Positions 6,859-23,124 of a DNA stretch of 36,655 nucleotides are shown here, piece after piece. A model generated the notes under the pieces. It was given only the letters and a program-made list of their open reading frames with translations, made no database searches and was not told the origin of the DNA. The DNA lies in assembly GCA_047639395.1 (NCBI GenBank), contig JBLINR010000002.1:1-36655 (forward strand), written 5' to 3'. This DNA comes from Candidatus Woesearchaeota archaeon. GTDB taxonomy: Archaea > Nanobdellota > Nanobdellia > Woesearchaeales > DATGWN01. A program made the translations under genes and the position numbers. Positions within the stretch are counted from its first letter, which is position 1, and each line of letters opens with the position of its first letter.

Positions 6859-9800
6859 ATGAGTGAAGAATCAGAACCAAAAGGAGTAGTTTCTCAATTA
6901 ATTAACGATGAGATGACGCAGTCATTTATGGCATATGCTATGTCCGTTATTGTGAGCCGTGCTTTGCCTGATGTTCGAGACGGATTAAAACCAGTTCATA
7001 GAAGAATATTATATGCTATGCATGATATGGGAATAACTGCTACGAAGCCTTTTAAGAAATCTGCGCGTATTGTAGGGGAAGTGTTAGGTAAGTACCATCC
7101 ACACGGAGATACTGCTGTATACGAAACTATGGTGCGTATGGCGCAAGATTTTTCATTACGTTATTTACTAGTTGACGGTCAAGGTAACTTTGGTTCTATT
7201 GATGGTGATTCTGCGGCTGCTATGCGTTATTGTATTACGGGCGATTCACTAGTTTTAACAAAAGAAGGAATGCTTCCTATCGCTTCTTTGTCTAATACGG
7301 GGACTATTTTATCTTATGATGGTAAGAAAAACACCTATTCAAAATTCTTTAATTCTGGAAAACAGTCAATTACACGAATCACAACAAAACAAGGATACGC
7401 TTTAGCGGGATCTCAAAACCATCCTGTATTATGTTGGGTAAAAGATATGTTTGGAATTCCAAGAATTGAGTGGAAATTACTCTCCCAGGTTGAATCAGGA
7501 GATCACGTACTTTTACAACGTGGCCATAATTTATTTGCAACAACAGACAAAGTTTCACAATCACTAGCGTTTTCATTAGGCGGATTAGTATCTGAAGGAA
7601 GCTTTCATCAGGGAAAGATATTATTCTGTAATAAGGATAAACTGTATTATAATAAAGTCAAAAAAGGATTAGACTCTTTTGCAGCTTGCAAATATTATGA
7701 GCGAGAAATGAAGGGCGATTGCTTTGAATTTGATATGTATGTTCAATCTATCGTAAAAAAACTCATTGCTCTTGGGCTAAAACAGGTCAAATCTACAGAA
7801 AAAGAAATTCCATTCTCAGTATTACAATCATCAAAAAAAGTTATTCGTGCATTCTTACAAGGATTATTTGAAGGGGATGGTTCAATTGCCTATAAAGTTG
7901 ATAAACGACATGGTGGAAAATCACTAGAGTTGCGCTATCACAGCAAAAGTAAAGTATTAATCTCACAATTAAAAACAGTTCTTTTGAATTTTGGTATTGT
8001 TACAACAAAGCCGTATCGGGATAAAAGAAATGACTGTAATCAAATTACTATATCTGGTAATACGAACGTACAACGATTTACATCTGAAATTGGTTTCTTT
8101 TCAAAGAGAAAACAGTCTATTACACAAAAATCATTTACAACAAACACAGGTATGAGTAAAATTGACACAATTCCTTTTGTTAATGACTATTTACATCACA
8201 ATTATGCTTCTTTAAAGAAATACAATGTTGATAGGTATGAATCATTAACGAAAAACTCAGCAAAAGTAGCATCAGCAATAACAAAAACTGATTCGCAATT
8301 AGTCACATTCTTAGAAAAGCATCACTTTTTTATTGATACGGTTGATGAAATAAAAGAAGAAAAATCACAAACTGTGTATTCCATAAAAGTTGACAGCAAA
8401 TGTCATTCTTTTGTTGCTAACGGGTTTATTAATCATAACACGGAAGCCCGTATGACAAAGCTTGCTGAAGAAACACTAACTGATATTGAAAAAGAAACAG
8501 TTGACTTTAGATTAAACTTCGATGAATCACTTAAGGAGCCAATTGTATTACCGAGTAAAGTTCCAAGTTTACTTGTGAATGGGTCTGTTGGTATTGCTGT
8601 GGGAATGGCAACAAATATACCGCCACATAATCTACGTGAAATTGGAAACGCACTTATTGCACTTATTGATAATCCTGAAATTGAAGCAGTTGAATTGATT
8701 AACTATGTTCAAGGTCCAGATTTTCCAACTGGGGGAATCATTCATGGACGTCATGGGATTTATTCAGCATACAAAGACGGAACAGGAAAAGTTAAAGTTC
8801 GAGCAAAGACACATGTCGAAGAAGTACATGGACGCCAAGCAATTATCATTGATGAAGTTCCGTATCAAGTAAACAAAGCACAAACTATTGAAAATATTGC
8901 ATCCTTAGTAAAAGATAAAGTAATTGAAGGCGTTCATGATATTCGAGATGAATCGGATAGAACTGGTATGCGTGTTGTCTTTGAATTAAAACGAGATGCA
9001 AATATTGACGTTACATTAAACCAACTCTTTAAACATTCACGATTCCAAGTTACATGTGGTATTATTAACCTTTGTTTGGTTAACAATGTACCGAGAATTC
9101 TCAATTTAAAGGAAATGCTTGAGTATTTTCTCAAACACCGATTTGAAGTTGTTACACGAAGAACACAGTTTGAGTTAACAAAAGCACAAAACCGTGCACA
9201 TATATTAATTGGATTAAAGATTGCTATTGACAATTTGGATGAAGCAATTACTATTATCCGTGGTGCGAAAAATGGAAGTGAAGCAAAAGAAGCATTAATG
9301 CAAAGTTTCCCATTAGATGATATTCAATCTCAAGCAATTCTTGATATGAAGTTACAACGACTTACTGGCCTTGAGCGAGAAAAGATTGTTTCTGAGTATA
9401 ACGTAATTATTGACTTAATTAAAGAATTACAGGTTATTTTAGATTCACGAGAACGAAAACTTACTATAATTCGAGATGAAACAAAAGAACTCATTGACAA
9501 ATATGGTGATGAACGAAGAACACAAATTGTTGACGGCGCACTTGATGTGGATGATGAAGATTTCATTGCAGATGAAGATGATGTTGTAACAATCACACAT
9601 AGTGGCTACATTAAACGAATCAATGTTGATACGTATAAAGCCCAACGACGTGGTGGACGTGGTATTATTGCAACAACAACAAAAGAAGAAGACTTTGTTG
9701 AAAAGATATTTGTTGCACATTCAAAATCTTATCTATTATTCTTTACAAGCTTAGGACAAGTACATTGGTTAAAAGTTTGGCAGATTCCGGAAGGAAGTCG

Positions 9801-10575
9801 TCAATCAAAAGGAAAAGCAATTGTAAATCTTATTCCACTCCAAGAAGGAGAGGAAATCAGTGCTGTTATTCCTGTTAAAGAATTCACAGAAGGAAACTCA
9901 TTAATCTTAGCAACGAAGAAAGGTACAGTTAAGAAATCAAGTATACTTGACTTCTCAAGACCAAGACAAGGTGGAATCAGAGCAATTAGATTACTTGATG
10001 ACGATGTATTAATCGGCGCTGCATTAACAACTGGTTCTCAAGAAGTTATTCTTGCAACACGTAAAGGAAACGCAATTCGGTTTGATGAACGTAACGCACG
10101 AGAAATGGGACGTGTAAGTCAAGGAGTTCGAGGTATTCGACTTAATGAAGATGATCACGTAGTTGGTATGGTTATTGCAGATGATTCTCAAACACTTTTA
10201 ACAATTACTGAAAATGGATACGGAAAACGTACCAAAATTGAAGAATATCGTCTTATTAACCGTGGTGGGAAAGGAGTAATTAATATTTCTTGTAGTGAAC
10301 GAAATGGAAATGTTATTGCAGTTCTTCCGGTTGAAGATGAAACACATTTATTATTCATTTCCAAAAAAGGAATCACAATTAGAACAAGAGCTGATCAAAT
10401 ATCAGTCATTGGACGAAATACACAAGGTGTTCGATTAATGCGACTTGACCAGGAAGATTTAGTAGTGTCAGCAGCAGTAGTAGCACATGAGGATGTAGAA
10501 GATGATGAAGAATCCGAAGAACATACTGATGAACCTAGAGTTGATCAACCAGTACAAGATAGTAAACAAGCTTAA
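6859..10575 (+). CDS. gyrA: DNA gyrase subunit A, interrupted by an intein
   Basis: 1238 aa. It contains [28 protein letters not shown] and [16 protein letters not shown]|...|TEARM (the catalytic Tyr motif, split). C-terminal beta-pinwheel repeats and an acidic tail are present. Without the intein it is 835 aa, a normal GyrA length. Confidence 0.95.
7231..8439 (+). mobile_element. GyrA intein (403 aa) with LAGLIDADG homing-endonuclease domain
   Basis: It starts CITGDSLV (Cys1 codon 7231-7233) right after AAMRY and ends FINHN (Asn codon 8437-8439), followed by T of TEARM. Block B is SQNHPVL. The two LAGLIDADG motifs are [10 protein letters not shown] (about 7561-7605) and [12 protein letters not shown] (7852-7887). 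It is collinear with the Mycobacterium xenopi GyrA intein sequence as I recall it (CITGDALV...HN/TEARL). Confidence 0.9.
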
Positions 10576-19506: not shown

Positions 19507-20292
19507 CTACACTTGTGCAGATTTGCACAAGTATTCTTTTTTTATTTTTATATTATTATAACGTAATATCTGATATACTTTTTTATCTAGTGCTTTTCTA
19601 TCTATGTCTGTTAATACACATTTCTTATTATACAATTCAATGGGATGTCTTTTCAGATGAAATGTATCTTTGTTAGATCCATATCGAATAGCAAGTACGC
19701 TATGAAGTACAGATCCCTTTTCATTAAACACAAGAGATGGCAATACGTGAATTTTTTCTGATCTTTTTGATACAGGTTTAATTCTAGTATGTTTTTGCTG
19801 TAACGCTCTTCTAAATTTTCGCATTGGTTTGATAGGAACACCCATAAAAAACACTTGGCGCTCTAAGTTTTGATAATCTGTATTTGAATGAAACACATCA
19901 AACGCTGCATGTGAATGTCCCATTGCATGTACGCGTTTACCTTTGTCTTGCAGGTATTGTTGCGCTCTATGAAATGCACCTTCGTCAACATGAAACGATG
20001 AGCCTGTTATTCTTTGTTCTATGGGTAATACAAGATCATCAAGTGTTATTTCTGTTTCCTGATATGGTAACTCTTGGACTACTTGTTTTGTCTTGACATT
20101 TGCTCCATACAAAAATGCAACTTCATATGATTTTCCTGCTAAATCGCTGATTCGTTTACTAATATAATTGGATTGTAAAATAACTCTATAGTCAACACGA
20201 ACTCTGACTCTTTCTTGTTGTTGTACAAAATCAGTTTCTTCATGTTTTGATGTTAATAATGATTCAATAGTAAATGGTGTTTGTAAATTCAT
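19507..20292 (-). CDS. JAMM/MPN+ (JAB) metalloisopeptidase
   Basis: The motif is complete in track numbering: E68 (SYEVAFLYG) ... H137-S-H139-x7-S147-x2-D150 (HSHAAFDVFHSNTD, codons 19876-19917). ATG 20292 is preceded by GGAGG at 7 nt; the track start at 20325 is a TTG. Confidence 0.8.
   Translation of the reverse strand: MNLQTPFTIESLLTSKHEETDFVQQQERVRVRVDYRVILQSNYISKRISDLAGKSYEVAFLYGANVKTKQVVQELPYQETEITLDDLVLPIEQRITGSSFHVDEGAFHRAQQYLQDKGKRVHAMGHSHAAFDVFHSNTDYQNLERQVFFMGVPIKPMRKFRRALQQKHTRIKPVSKRSEKIHVLPSLVFNEKGSVLHSVLAIRYGSNKDTFHLKRHPIELYNKKCVLTDIDRKALDKKVYQILRYNNIKIKKEYLCKSAQV
19511..19549 (+). terminator. Hairpin plus T-tract terminator for dnaG, embedded in the 3' coding end of the JAB gene on the opposite strand
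   Basis: acttgtgca-gatt-tgcacaagt (9-bp perfect stem, 19511-19532) is followed by attc TTTTTTT a TTTTT (19537-19549). Confidence 0.45.
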
Positions 20293-20294
20293 AG

Positions 20295-21533
20295 TTAGGC
20301 CTCCAGCTTTTGTTTTTTTGTGCAATGATAAAAAAGGGGTTTTTCAAGAATACGACTTTGTACTGATAATTGTTGTTGTGCTACGTATCCCATCATTGCT
20401 CCCACAATCATGTTCGGAACAATGATTGACGGGTTTGCGACTCTTGCACAACTTGCATCTCTTGTTACTGTCTGCGGTTGTAAATCGCGTTGTAATGCAA
20501 TTGTTTTTGTAAATGGTGGTGTATATTGCGTGACCACACCTTTGTGCGTTGATACTGCACCTTCAATTACTTCTATTTTGTATTTTCTTGCAAAATCGGA
20601 AATGAGTATTCGACTATTAATAGAGTCAGTGGCACAAAAAATTGTGTCGTAGGGAACTCGTGTGTGTCTGCGTTCAAGTTGTTGAATTGATTGTTCTGTA
20701 AGATATTCGTTAATTGCACACCATGTTGTTTGTGGTGCTATTCTTCCCATGATACGACAAAGACTCTGTGCTTTTTGTTGACCAACTTCTGTTGCATACA
20801 AAAATTGACGATTAAGGTTTGTTGCTTCTACTGTATCTCCATCATACACATCAATTTGTTTGTAGCGACTAAATGCTACTTGTAATGCTAAATACGTTCC
20901 AATTCCTCCGGCACCAATGATTGCAACCTGTTTGGTTTTTTTTTTCGGGAGATGAATATGTCTTTTTGTGAATGCTCTCGGGCAAAGAGTTGTTTCTTTT
21001 TGAATGATTTCTTCGTTAGCTGTTAATGGTGCAAATCGTTTTCTTATCTCGTCACTTAACATTGCACCTAATAAGGGGGAGAGTAAACTTCCTAACTCAG
21101 TAGTTGGTTGCCGACTAACAACTGCTTTGTTTGTTTTTGTTGTGGTTGCATAATAAGATGCATGCACATTTTTTGCAAGTGTTGCAAATCTTTTATTTTT
21201 TTCTTCATGTTGATCGATGCACATGTGCGGGTTATCTATGTATTGTGTAAGTAAAGGTCCACGAATAAATTTCCAATTAAGCGGGTACCTTTTTTCAAAA
21301 ATATTCTTTGCTTGACGAACACGATACTGTGTTTTTTTATCACACAGATTTTGCAATAGTACTAGTGGTGTTTGTACATTGTCAATTACTGTGACGTCTT
21401 TTACTCCTAACCCTGCAAGACCCATTAGTAGGTATTCTGATGTGAGATTTAATCCATGAATAACAATTCTTGCTTCTTCAAGTTTCTTTTGACGTTCTAG
21501 TCCTAATGCACTTATATTTGCTTCGTATACCAT
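20295..21533 (-). CDS. E1-like ThiF/MoeB-family adenylyltransferase with an N-terminal degenerate (inactive-like) repeat
   Basis: The C-terminal half has VAIIGAGGIGTY (GAGGIG codons 20898-20915), DGDTVEATNLNRQFLY and Cys362 in RDASCARVANPSIIVPNMIVGAMMG (TGT 20448-20450). In the N-terminal half, ARIVIHGLNLTSEYLLMGLAGLGVKDVTVIDN and LGSLLSPLLGAMLSDEIRK echo the same fold without a Gly-rich loop. Confidence 0.85.
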   Translation of the reverse strand: MVYEANISALGLERQKKLEEARIVIHGLNLTSEYLLMGLAGLGVKDVTVIDNVQTPLVLLQNLCDKKTQYRVRQAKNIFEKRYPLNWKFIRGPLLTQYIDNPHMCIDQHEEKNKRFATLAKNVHASYYATTTKTNKAVVSRQPTTELGSLLSPLLGAMLSDEIRKRFAPLTANEEIIQKETTLCPRAFTKRHIHLPKKKTKQVAIIGAGGIGTYLALQVAFSRYKQIDVYDGDTVEATNLNRQFLYATEVGQQKAQSLCRIMGRIAPQTTWCAINEYLTEQSIQQLERRHTRVPYDTIFCATDSINSRILISDFARKYKIEVIEGAVSTHKGVVTQYTPPFTKTIALQRDLQPQTVTRDASCARVANPSIIVPNMIVGAMMGYVAQQQLSVQSRILEKPLFYHCTKKQKLEA

Positions 21534-22540
21534 TGTGTTTTATGTTGTAATGAACGTGGGTAATGAACAGGGGCGCAGTCTGGTGTATATCCAAACATGA
21601 GTACATTTTTTGCATAGTGCATTGCAGTTGCTAACTTAGTTGCAGTTTCTTCATTTTTTGGCATCCAAGAATTTTGATGTAAGTTAATTTTATTGAACCG
21701 AGAACTACCATTATAACAAATGGATCCATTTGAAAAAACAAAAAAATGTTCATATCCTTTTCGTGCTCTTGGAAATTGAGTAATAAGGCATTCATCTTGC
21801 GTATGTGTTATACGAAGAGTGAGTTGCGTTGCATCAAAATAATATTTTTGTGATTCTGCCTCCACTTCGTGTGCGGGTTGTTTTGTAGACAATACAATTG
21901 TTTGTTCGTCTATTTTTTTGAGTCTACAATTTTGATTATGCTGCGTGTGATCTCTATCGAATTCTTTTTGTGGTAATATCTTTTTTTGATAATGTTGATT
22001 CCAAAATGTTGTTTGTGGAATTCTGATGGGCTGTTTTGAAAAAAAGTGCCTACCAACTGAAAAATCAACATTTGGTCTTGGTTCTACTGGCACGAGAAGT
22101 TGTGTGTTTTTCTGTGTGAAATATGTGTTTGGTAAAATTATTTTTTGTTCTTTTGTTTGTTTTCCTTCTGGATTGGTTTGTGTTTCTTTTTTTGGCTGGT
22201 ACCACTGTAAATAAGCATCCGTGAGTTTTTTCCAAAAAGTATCAACCTGTTGTTCTTCTAAAAACCACTGTATATCTTCGCAGATCTCTGCTGGTTTTCC
22301 AAGTATAGTTGCAGTTGCATTTTTTTTGTTTATTGCAGGTACGTATACAGTATTATTAAACAGTACTGCTTGTTTTGTTTCTGCTAATAATTCTTGTAAT
22401 GGTGGTTTGGTTTGCGGCACAGGTGTTTTTTGACTAAAAATATGTGTTGGTTGTATACGCGGTTGCAGTTGTCGTACTACTCGGAAAGTTGTACGTGGCT
22501 GTATGTAAAATATTTGTCCCTGTACGATAGTTTGATTCAT
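21512..22540 (-). CDS. E2-like (UBC-fold) protein with an N-terminal region of about 220 aa of unknown function
   Basis: The C-terminal region reads YEH265FFVFSNGSIC275YNG...NSW292MP...LATAMHYAKNVL. This compares with the UBE2D active site [21 protein letters not shown] (from memory). The Cys codon is TGT at 21716-21718. The N-terminal part is Gln/Pro/Lys/Thr-rich with no recognisable motif. Confidence 0.6.
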   Translation of the reverse strand: MNQTIVQGQIFYIQPRTTFRVVRQLQPRIQPTHIFSQKTPVPQTKPPLQELLAETKQAVLFNNTVYVPAINKKNATATILGKPAEICEDIQWFLEEQQVDTFWKKLTDAYLQWYQPKKETQTNPEGKQTKEQKIILPNTYFTQKNTQLLVPVEPRPNVDFSVGRHFFSKQPIRIPQTTFWNQHYQKKILPQKEFDRDHTQHNQNCRLKKIDEQTIVLSTKQPAHEVEAESQKYYFDATQLTLRITHTQDECLITQFPRARKGYEHFFVFSNGSICYNGSSRFNKINLHQNSWMPKNEETATKLATAMHYAKNVLMFGYTPDCAPVHYPRSLQHKTQWYTKQI

Positions 22541-22552
22541 GTATGTTCCTAG

Positions 22553-22975
22553 TTACTTTCTCCCACCATCAAGTGTTGCAAGTAACTGTACTGCTATTGC
22601 TTTGTAGTCTGAATCTTGTGTATCTGTGTGAACAACACTTGCGTAATGTTGAGAAACTCTGTCTGTGAGTGATATTCTATATCCTGAATCAAATTGTCCA
22701 TCTCGTTTTGGAATCAGATGTAATGTTTGAGGTGTTGTTAATTCAGTTGCAATATAATCTGCAAGTCCACATTCATCAGGCGAGTAGTCGCTATTGTGTT
22801 CGTCCGCACCTGGGTCGAGTAAATATTGTACTACATCATCAAATGTTCCTTGGAGTAATTCTGGAGAAACAAGTTTACAAAGACCTGTTTGATCTTGTGT
22901 TGTACCATCTTCAAGTATTTTTGTTAGTGAGTCGTTAGGTGTATTTGTCACTAAAGTTATTTTTGTTGGTTTCAT
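22553..22975 (-). CDS. Ubiquitin-like (beta-grasp) modifier precursor ending in GG-RK
   Basis: 140 aa. The C-terminus is ...YKAIAVQLLATLDGGRK, with Gly137-Gly138 codons at 22562-22567 followed by only Arg-Lys and the stop. It is the first gene of the operon, 12 nt upstream of the E2-like gene. Confidence 0.55.
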   Translation of the reverse strand: MKPTKITLVTNTPNDSLTKILEDGTTQDQTGLCKLVSPELLQGTFDDVVQYLLDPGADEHNSDYSPDECGLADYIATELTTPQTLHLIPKRDGQFDSGYRISLTDRVSQHYASVVHTDTQDSDYKAIAVQLLATLDGGRK

Positions 22976-23093
22976 ATGTTTTTAGGAAGAACTGCTTTTA
23001 ATGGAGTTGTTGTATACATTTCCGGTTATTTTGCGAGTAAAGTATACGTTTTTTCAGATTAAGATGCACTGCTCGTCGTACCTTGTCGAAACA

Positions 23094-23101
23094 TTTATAA
23101 T
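23094..23101 (+). promoter_or_regulatory. TATA box (gaaacaTTTATAAT) for the large secreted-protein operon
   Basis: It ends 23 nt upstream of ATG 23125. Confidence 0.5.
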
Positions 23102-23124
23102 ATTAAAACACAAAATGAGTATCA

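Follow-up and report, generated by a model that had tools for sequence, protein, structure and literature searches.

In bacteria, operons that bring together a ubiquitin-activating enzyme (E1), a ubiquitin-conjugating enzyme (E2), a ubiquitin-like protein (Ubl) and a deubiquitinase (DUB), as in Bil, Bub and Cap2/3, are treated as antiviral inventions. Among these, Cap2, a fusion of E1 and E2, acts in the conjugation of a cGAS-like enzyme. For archaea, a 2024 review traces E2s to Caldiarchaeum and the Asgard archaea alone (PMC11354881), and a literature search for an E1/E2/Ubl/JAB system in DPANN archaea or Methanosarcinales returned no description. The locus presented here lies in a stretch of 36,655 nucleotides from the small-genome, DPANN-type Candidatus Woesearchaeota archaeon (contig JBLINR010000002.1 of assembly GCA_047639395.1, positions 1 to 36,655), referred to below as the window, and consists of four adjacent genes for a Ubl, an E2-like protein, an E1 and a JAMM/MPN+ metalloprotease. 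Together, these genes likely make up an operon that supports a full cycle of ubiquitin-like conjugation. The cassette is real and apparently represents an undescribed archaeal variant of the prokaryotic E1-E2-Ubl-DUB cassettes, although it is not categorically new, since prokaryotic E1-E2-Ubl-JAB operons are an established class.

Judged by its sequence, the 412-aa protein is certainly a single-chain E1 in which an inactive and an active adenylation domain form a pseudo-dimer, a layout that has been reported for BilD and for eukaryotic E1s (10.1101/2023.09.26.559546). Its assignment to the ThiF/MoeB/E1 enzymes, made in an earlier first-pass annotation of the DNA, is borne out by the Pfam family ThiF (5.4e-38; 130.9 bits over a cut-off of 28.1; residues 199-382), by the residues that are invariant in a nine-member family alignment (G207, G209, G212, D231, N239, R242, Q243, K254 and D303) and by profile searches against the PDB. 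In the latter, the family profile reaches the eukaryotic Uba1, UBA6, UBA3 and SAE2 at 1e-26 to 1e-29, ThiF and MoeB at about 1e-26, BubCD at 1.7e-19 and Cap2 at 2e-16. The two domains are matched separately and collinearly in Uba1 from Schizosaccharomyces pombe: profile positions 12-150 correspond to residues 9-145 of the inactive domain (i-E 4.5e-5), and positions 206-376 to residues 393-573 of the active domain (3e-19). The N-terminal domain of the window E1 lacks GxGxxG, and the motifs of the enzyme are GAGGIG (207-212), DGDTVEATNLNRQ and Cys362. When placed on the family hidden Markov model (HMM), the nucleotide- and Mg-binding residues coincide with D62, R73, K86 and D130 of MoeB, and Cys362 coincides with Cys184 of ThiF and Cys187 of MoeB, both reference sequences having been entered by hand; independently of these sequences, the ThiF alignment in the PDB profile search stops at residue 184. 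The crossover loop that carries this cysteine measures only about 30 residues and holds no inserted Cys domain, and the chain stops about 30 residues past the adenylation domain, with no C-terminal ubiquitin-fold domain. Against the NCBIfam model SAMPActivE1UbaA the protein scores 55 bits, under the cut-off of 450. Within the family, both CxxC zinc-binding motifs have been lost in the E1s of the window clade (the window, L002 and L007, the L-numbers being labels of related loci) and are kept in the more distant members compared (L003, L004, L031 and L082) as well as in ThiF and MoeB.

The longest alignment of the E1 profile is the one with MccB (positions 202-427, E 2.4e-25), and PaaA is matched too, both of which speak for a peptide or metabolite pathway in which the E1-like enzyme activates a C-terminus for amide or heterocycle chemistry. 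Such a pathway is nevertheless extremely improbable, given that the substrate gene would encode a folded, beta-grasp-like protein of 140 aa with Gly-Gly instead of a short peptide, and that the cassette includes genes for a JAMM protease and a putative UBC-like protein and none for export, immunity or tailoring.

The 261-aa protein can, from its motif, be taken with certainty as a JAMM/MPN+ metalloprotease. The motif had been described as complete in the numbering of a 272-aa reading (E68, H137-S-H139, S147 and D150), which in the 261-aa numbering becomes E57, H126-S-H128, S136 and D139; it withstands a ten-member alignment, in which HSH, S and D never vary and 90% of the members have the upstream Glu (E57), and agrees with the matches of the family profile to proteases of the Rpn11 type. 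In the PDB, these matches are headed by the Rpn11-like protein of Caldiarchaeum (6fjv, 1.1e-9), with Rpn11, CSN5 and AMSH at about 1e-5, and the similarity to BilC is marginal (E 0.74). The single protein gives 19.5 bits against Pfam Prok-JAB, under the cut-off of 25, and has no match in PADLOC or PHROGs.

The E2 assignment of the 342-aa protein is of a different kind, because sequence libraries are silent about it and the family alignment, the structural model, the fold search and the profile alignment support it, with weak E-values. No match was obtained in Pfam, NCBIfam, PADLOC, PHROGs or PDB sequences; the protein and its profile found nothing among PDB sequences up to E 10, and a Pfam scan of each of 22 family members gave no UQ_con and no Prok-E2 family. 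Likewise, a word-indexed homologue search returned the protein itself alone, and a search for related loci in GTDB genomes with the single protein returned nothing. When 1.84 billion representatives were scanned exhaustively with HMMER, 21 relatives were recovered, all of them matching residues ~200-335. In the alignment of the 22 sequences, P257, H265 and C275 are invariant, F235, Y263, F267, G317 and Y318 are nearly so, and the consensus reads Y.H(P/F)FV(F/Y)s.G.IC(Y/F).G..R(F/W). The window protein has YEH265FFVFSNGSIC275, followed by W292-M-P, and the spacing of 10 residues between His265 and Cys275 is the same as that of HPN...Cys in E2 enzymes. The first-pass annotation had pointed to the identity of SNGSIC with the active-site stretch of UBE2D-type E2s: the residues are there, but the full identity is partly luck, as S.G.IC alone is conserved in the family.

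The AlphaFold model of the E2-like protein has a predicted local distance difference test (pLDDT) of 79 over the full length and of more than 90 within the C-terminal domain, where a beta-meander is predicted to be followed by the His loop and the Cys and then by four helices, of which the second is long and the others are short. When the full-length model is compared by Foldseek with 350,542 PDB chains, about 43 of the top 50 matches are E2 enzymes, among them UbcH5, Cdc34, Rad6, Ubc13, UbcH7, Ubc9 and Ubc12, and in the viral library the E2s of giant viruses and of African swine fever virus appear at ranks 2, 11, 24 and 28. An hhalign comparison of the family with a profile of five E2s, whose sequences were entered by hand, yields P 0.002 over 40 columns and pairs H265 with H75, C275 with C85, W292 with W93 and the long helix with alpha2; the same comparison with BilB from E. 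aridi shows no similarity (E 0.66). The C-terminal domain can thus be regarded with high probability as UBC-like, though divergent, and Cys275 as its putative acceptor; going by the alignment, the domain defines a rare, previously uncatalogued family. The unusual extension of the protein is confirmed, amounting to about 200 N-terminal residues, parts of which fold confidently in the model.

These features also bear on whether an E2 takes part at all. A system of the SAMP/UbaA (small archaeal modifier protein) or Urm1/Uba4 type is E2-independent and is built on a sulfur carrier that may or may not also modify proteins; in it, the 342-aa protein would carry no thioester and would be an unrelated accessory, acting for instance as target, as adaptor or as a Cys/His hydrolase. 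To this would correspond the equal similarity of the active E1 domain to ThiF, MoeB, Uba4 and canonical E1s, the ThiF/MoeB type of its crossover-loop cysteine, the E2-like fold evidence, which stays under formal significance, and the missing HPN Asn. It is very improbable all the same: over the loci described below, no gene accompanies those of the Ubl and the E1 more faithfully than the E2-like one, whose family has an invariant Cys at the E2 position and a fold search dominated by E2s, the E1 carries an inactive domain instead of acting as a homodimer and has no rhodanese domain, and the Ubl appears to require C-terminal processing.

The 140-aa protein, proposed as the Ubl in the first-pass annotation, has no match in Pfam, NCBIfam, PADLOC, PHROGs or PDB sequences, but the proposal is supported by the alignment of its family, by a structural model and by a fold search, each Foldseek E-value being weak. 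In related loci, the small gene upstream of the E2-like gene is a homologue, and the family alignment displays a common LDPxxDxxNxxY segment and an aligned C-terminal Gly-Gly. In the window, the C-terminus reads ...LDG137-G138-RK, and 17 of the 19 distinct family members have Gly-Gly or x-Gly 0-25 residues before the C-terminus. The tails that follow are unrelated to one another, from RK in the window to 22 residues in L007 and to none in L173, which ends exactly in GG, and a variable tail of 0-25 residues behind a Gly-Gly is what would be expected of a precursor in need of processing. The AlphaFold2 model from an 18-sequence alignment has a pLDDT of 86 and a predicted template modelling score (pTM) of 0.81. 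Ubiquitin-superfold domains dominate its top Foldseek matches in the PDB (E-values 0.01 to 1), including RA/RBD, SAP18, the Ubl of TBCE/TBCB, the UBL of Rsa4, the UBL of USP11/USP15, DIX, PB1, SUMO (TMt 0.60) and TGS. The protein is read here as a beta-grasp that is enlarged by insertions and made as a precursor, as the model suggests, and at the level of the alignment it belongs to a new family with an LDPxxDxxNxxY motif of its own.

A survey of related genomes, which the first-pass annotation had suggested, finds the same gene families together in other archaeal loci, and the set is regarded as more than a chance assembly. The census used a degenerate DNA pattern for Y.H.FV...G.[ILVMF]C[YF] on three collections, with the matches screened by local HMMs; it is a lower bound for the E2-like family, since the pattern catches about half of the known members. 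GTDB genomes contain 12 true E2-like loci, six of them in metagenome-assembled genomes (MAGs) labelled Methanosarcinales and six in DPANN (MAGs and genomes of Woesearchaeota, Nanoarchaeota and Nanoarchaeia, including the complete AR15 chromosome), taxonomic labels being used as deposited. Metagenomes add at least 11 further loci, and none of the 8 pattern matches on viral contigs is a true member of the E2-like family. Together with loci reached through E1 and E2-like relatives, the total is 31 E2-like loci, some of them redundant. On the same strand and within 6 kb of the E2-like gene, an E1 gene is found in 21 of the 31, a JAMM gene in 15 and a Ubl gene in 23, and most of the missing partners coincide with a contig end close to the E2-like gene. 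The genes are arranged as Ubl-E2-E1-JAB, Ubl-E2-JAB-E1 or Ubl-JAB-E2-E1, and the GC content of the loci ranges from 27% to 62%. That the four families travel together, in several orders, in both DPANN and Methanosarcinales-labelled loci argues that they are one functional unit. The cassette contigs labelled Methanosarcinales (L019, L047, L062, L063 and L071) have 27-35% GC, which is low for this label, so that they may be misbinned DPANN contigs or mobile elements.

Some of the related loci present features of their own. L013 and L062 have two E2-like genes each. L004 (5586-12194) is a variant operon of 59% GC with two Ubl genes, one of them ending exactly in Gly, two additional Cys-rich genes (428 and 386 aa) past the E1 gene and an Mrr_cat restriction-type gene upstream. 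By Pfam, a Transglut_core gene adjoins the cassette in L019 (7038-7862) and in L066 (6117-6782), where it is accompanied by a RimK-type ATP-grasp gene, and the neighbouring gene of L062 (100-774) is transglutaminase-like by reading of the translation alone. A role of such genes as accessory proteases or ligases is conceivable.

The distribution is relevant to the kinship with Bil as well. The first-pass annotation had proposed a Bil-like or related system, which holds for the architecture and the probable mechanism but not for membership at the sequence level. That the cassette is a true member of the bacterial BilABCD antiviral family, moved into archaea and tagging virion proteins of archaeal viruses, is improbable. 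The gene content is the same, and the Bil order Ubl-E2-JAB-E1 occurs in L004 and L173; the inactive and active adenylation domains of the E1 are as in BilD, and the short Ubl tail past the conserved Gly is as in type II BilA (10.1101/2023.09.26.559546). Furthermore, the spread is patchy over distant archaea with the wide GC range given above, the identity to L007 is about 30% for the cassette proteins and 62% for DnaG, a much faster divergence of the former, and the neighbours include an Mrr-type gene at L004 and Bro-N and SprT genes at L063. Against this, no PADLOC model matches the Ubl, the E2-like protein or the JAMM protease, and the E1 matches only the models of the E1-E2 protein Cap2 of the cyclic oligonucleotide-based antiphage signalling system (CBASS), among the 25 of 32 matches listed. 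Neither does the E2-like profile find anything in E. aridi BilB, nor do the 22 members contain the Prok-E2 Pfam family; the E-value for BilC stands against 1e-9 for Rpn11-like structures, the E1 is without the Cys-domain insertion of about 80 residues, the cassette keeps its place beside dnaG in three related genomes, and the viral contigs scanned contain no copy.

Under the favoured reading, that of an operon for a full conjugation cycle, the intact catalytic residues, the conserved cysteines, the processed-precursor pattern and the co-inheritance of the four genes come from computation; the chemistry of each step, the direction in which the Ubl is transferred, what the targets are and the absence of an E3 (ubiquitin ligase) are deduced from the anatomy of the proteins. 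The JAMM protease would trim the C-terminal Arg-Lys off the 140-aa precursor and thereby expose Gly137-Gly138. The active E1 domain would then adenylate Gly138, and the Ubl would become a thioester on Cys362 in the crossover loop, to be handed from there to Cys275 in the UBC-like domain of the E2-like protein. From Cys275, it may pass by aminolysis onto lysines of the target, without a dedicated E3, and the JAMM protease could also take the tag off again. The N-terminal extension of about 200 residues in the E2-like protein probably provides E1 docking or target choice.

Several points weigh against this picture. The position of the HPN Asn is occupied in the E2-like family by Phe267 (at least 90%, within H-P/F-F), so that E2-like catalysis would be non-canonical. 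The Foldseek matches are individually non-significant, both for the E2-like model (best E 0.12; TMt of at most 0.45) and for the Ubl (E of at least 0.01; TM of at most 0.60), the hhalign probability against E2s is 13%, and the E2, ThiF and MoeB reference sequences used for the alignments were entered by hand. The E1 possesses neither a ubiquitin-fold domain, to which an E2 would bind, nor a helical Cys domain. As regards the chemistry, the Bub E1 and E2 homologues act via oxyesters (PMC11601596), a precedent by which homology does not fix the chemistry; here, both cysteines are conserved. Finally, no E1, JAMM or Ubl gene lies near some of the E2-like genes (the AR15-type loci L058, L179 and L209, and also L181). 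These lone genes either have their partners elsewhere in the genome or fulfil a stand-alone role. L058 belongs to Archaeon GW2011_AR15 (CP010425), and the neighbours of its E2-like gene are those of a P-type ATPase and of a 352-aa protein.

The coordinates of the cassette and of its closest surroundings are collected in Table 1. The four-gene minus-strand layout and the order of the genes described in the first-pass annotation agree with the list of open reading frames (ORFs), the recomputed spacings are again a 12-nt gap between the Ubl and E2-like genes, a 22-nt overlap between the E2-like and E1 genes and a 2-nt gap between the E1 and JAMM genes, and all the residues that it named are found at their positions. 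Its choice of ATG 20292 as the JAMM start is likewise upheld, in view of the GGAGG 7 nt ahead, the use of the same start by the gene caller on an independent 4.5-kb contig of the same sequence, and the orthologues, which begin with MNL or MNT at the matching position; the upstream TTG 20325 was dropped on the same grounds. The AT-rich region between the Ubl gene and the divergent giant genes is the likely promoter region of the cassette. A scan for promoters of bacterial type gave 16 matches where 15.2 were expected from shuffled sequence, which is no excess, and a terminator scan, again with a bacterial consensus, gave no excess over shuffles. Scans of the window for tRNAs and Rfam families returned no matches.

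Table 1. Position of the cassette genes and of neighbouring features in the window
Feature	Position	Strand	Description
Ubl precursor gene	22553-22975	-	140 aa, ends ...LLATLDGGRK
E2-like gene	21512-22540	-	342 aa; ~1-200 N-terminal modules, ~204-335 UBC-like domain (predicted)
E1 gene	20295-21533	-	412 aa; inactive adenylation domain ~1-170, active ~199-382
JAMM/MPN+ metalloprotease gene	19507-20292	-	261 aa from ATG 20292 (272 aa from TTG 20325)
Divergent intergenic region, Ubl gene/giant gene	22976-23124	.	AT-rich, 149 bp; candidate cassette promoter
Giant genes of 889, 1056 and 927 aa	23125-31697	+	divergent from the cassette
ORF of >1116 aa	~33000 to window end	+	further ORF, cut by the window end

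The window encodes the ribosomal proteins L31e and S19e, a RIO kinase, an RPA-like OB-fold protein, a KH-domain protein, the archaeal DnaG, ScpB and an intein-containing GyrA, and is for this reason regarded as a housekeeping stretch of an archaeal chromosome. The archaeal host assumed at first is confirmed by these genes, and the closest related loci are labelled Woesearchaeota, Nanoarchaeota and Nanoarchaeia. The gene for DNA gyrase subunit A (6859-10575, plus strand) is split by an intein with a LAGLIDADG homing endonuclease, its Pfam matches being DNA_topoisoIV, DNA_gyraseA_C, Intein_splicing and LAGLIDADG_3. In L007, a metagenomic contig of 1.56 Mb, dnaG is followed by the genes for the Ubl, the E2-like protein, the E1 and the JAMM protease and then by homologues of the giant genes (34% and 24% identity), and in L002 dnaG abuts the JAMM gene. 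The adjacency to dnaG in the window, L007 and L002 indicates that the position of the cassette was inherited within the window lineage, with one inversion. Identity to L007 is 62% for DnaG, about 29-33% for the four cassette proteins and 34% for the first giant protein. The cassette of the window as a horizontally acquired island was rejected, as its GC content and strand skew resemble those of the flanks. The earlier impression that it is not part of an obvious mobile island thus stands, with its housekeeping flanks, the dnaG and giant-gene neighbours kept in L007 and L002, and no copy on the viral contigs scanned.

In Pfam, the giant proteins have just one weak Ig-like match. The first of them starts with MSKGFLKRG/QISAYIFVGVLIAAI, which by eye resembles a signal peptide of archaeal class III (type IV pilin-like), and four small genes directly downstream of the distant cassette of L003 (5157-7286, minus strand) encode hydrophobic N-termini like pilin-type signal peptides. 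Genes with putative pilin signals adjoin the cassette in the window, L007 and L003. Regarding the role of the cassette, these neighbours and the transglutaminase-like ones are leads only.

The role may be one of two, each a serious possibility somewhat short of an even chance. One of them is defence against viruses or mobile elements in the manner of Bil, for which the patchy distribution, the fast divergence, the shuffled gene order and the occasional Mrr, Bro-N and SprT neighbours can be put forward. Just as plausible is tagging for regulation or proteostasis, along the lines of sampylation or of the Caldiarchaeum system, a cellular role that would suit the stable position among housekeeping genes in the window lineage, the absence from the viral contigs scanned and the lack of defence-model matches to the Ubl, the E2-like protein and the JAMM protease. 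Another role, including a link to the adjacent giant surface-protein genes, is rather unlikely.

Because the cassette recurs in some two dozen other archaeal loci, E2-dependent tagging in archaea is probably wider than Caldiarchaeum and Asgard. Tentatively, with the balance close to even, the cassette might be the first recognised archaeal Ubl system, in DPANN and Methanosarcinales-labelled hosts, that has its own E2 and Ubl families, a Uba1-style E1 with a loop cysteine of ThiF type and an Rpn11-like protease; it would then stand as an intermediate between sampylation, which has no E2, and the cascade of eukaryotic type. In the lineage of the window, it may act on the adjacent giant surface proteins with putative pilin signals or at the interface of symbiont and host or with viruses. 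A distinct, recurrent archaeal cassette would be a new branch in the history of the ubiquitin system, to which it adds an uncatalogued E2-like family and an E1 that joins a eukaryote-like two-domain layout with a ThiF-like catalytic loop. Its interest extends to the biology of minimal archaea, as it raises the question of why very small, host-dependent archaea need protein tagging. Being compact and apparently E3-less, it also offers a practical set of four proteins for reconstitution in vitro.

When compared with the known systems, the cassette falls outside Bil, Bub, Cap2/3, SAMP and the Caldiarchaeum system as far as sequence-level membership is concerned, and shares features with each. With BilABCD it has in common the four genes for a Ubl and an E2 (both predicted in the window), a JAMM/JAB deubiquitinase and an E1 without an E3 gene, the single-chain E1 with inactive and active domains, and a Ubl tail past the conserved Gly, which in Bil is removed by the JAB protein. 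Unlike Bil, its E2-like family has no sequence similarity to BilB and carries the N-terminal extension, a short crossover loop and not a helical Cys domain of about 80 residues holds the E1 cysteine, the JAMM protease is Rpn11-like and not BilC-like, and the Ubl is predicted to be a single enlarged beta-grasp with LDPxxDxxNxxY; in addition, the hosts are archaeal, and the cassette of the window is surrounded by housekeeping genes. The eukaryote-like Ub-E1-E2-RING-Rpn11 operon of Caldiarchaeum subterraneum and the Asgard archaea is likewise archaeal and, as is proposed for the window, E2-dependent with a Ubl processed at Gly-Gly, and the Rpn11-like JAMM enzyme of Caldiarchaeum is the closest solved relative of the window protease. 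Here, however, there is no RING E3, nor any fifth gene between dnaG and the giant genes, the E2-like protein lacks both a Pfam UQ_con match and the HPN Asn, the Ubl is unrecognisable as ubiquitin by sequence, and the E1 has no separate Cys domain.

With SAMP/UbaA and Urm1/Uba4, the cassette shares a ThiF-type E1 with a crossover-loop cysteine and a modifier, predicted here to be a beta-grasp, with a C-terminal Gly-Gly and, in the case of SAMP/UbaA, the archaeal hosts and a JAMM enzyme for removal, which there is HvJAMM1. Whereas those systems are E2-less and use a one-domain, homodimeric E1, often with a rhodanese domain, the window combines an E2-like partner with an inactive-plus-active fusion. 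Lastly, as in Bub and in CBASS Cap2/Cap3, an E1 homologue, an E2 homologue (a putative one in the window) and a peptidase are encoded in one prokaryotic operon. Bub forms serine oxyesters and has its peptidase fused to the E1 (PMC11601596). In contrast to Bub and Cap2, the proteins of the window are separate, the cysteines of the E1 and of the E2-like protein are conserved, and the cassette has a dedicated Ubl.

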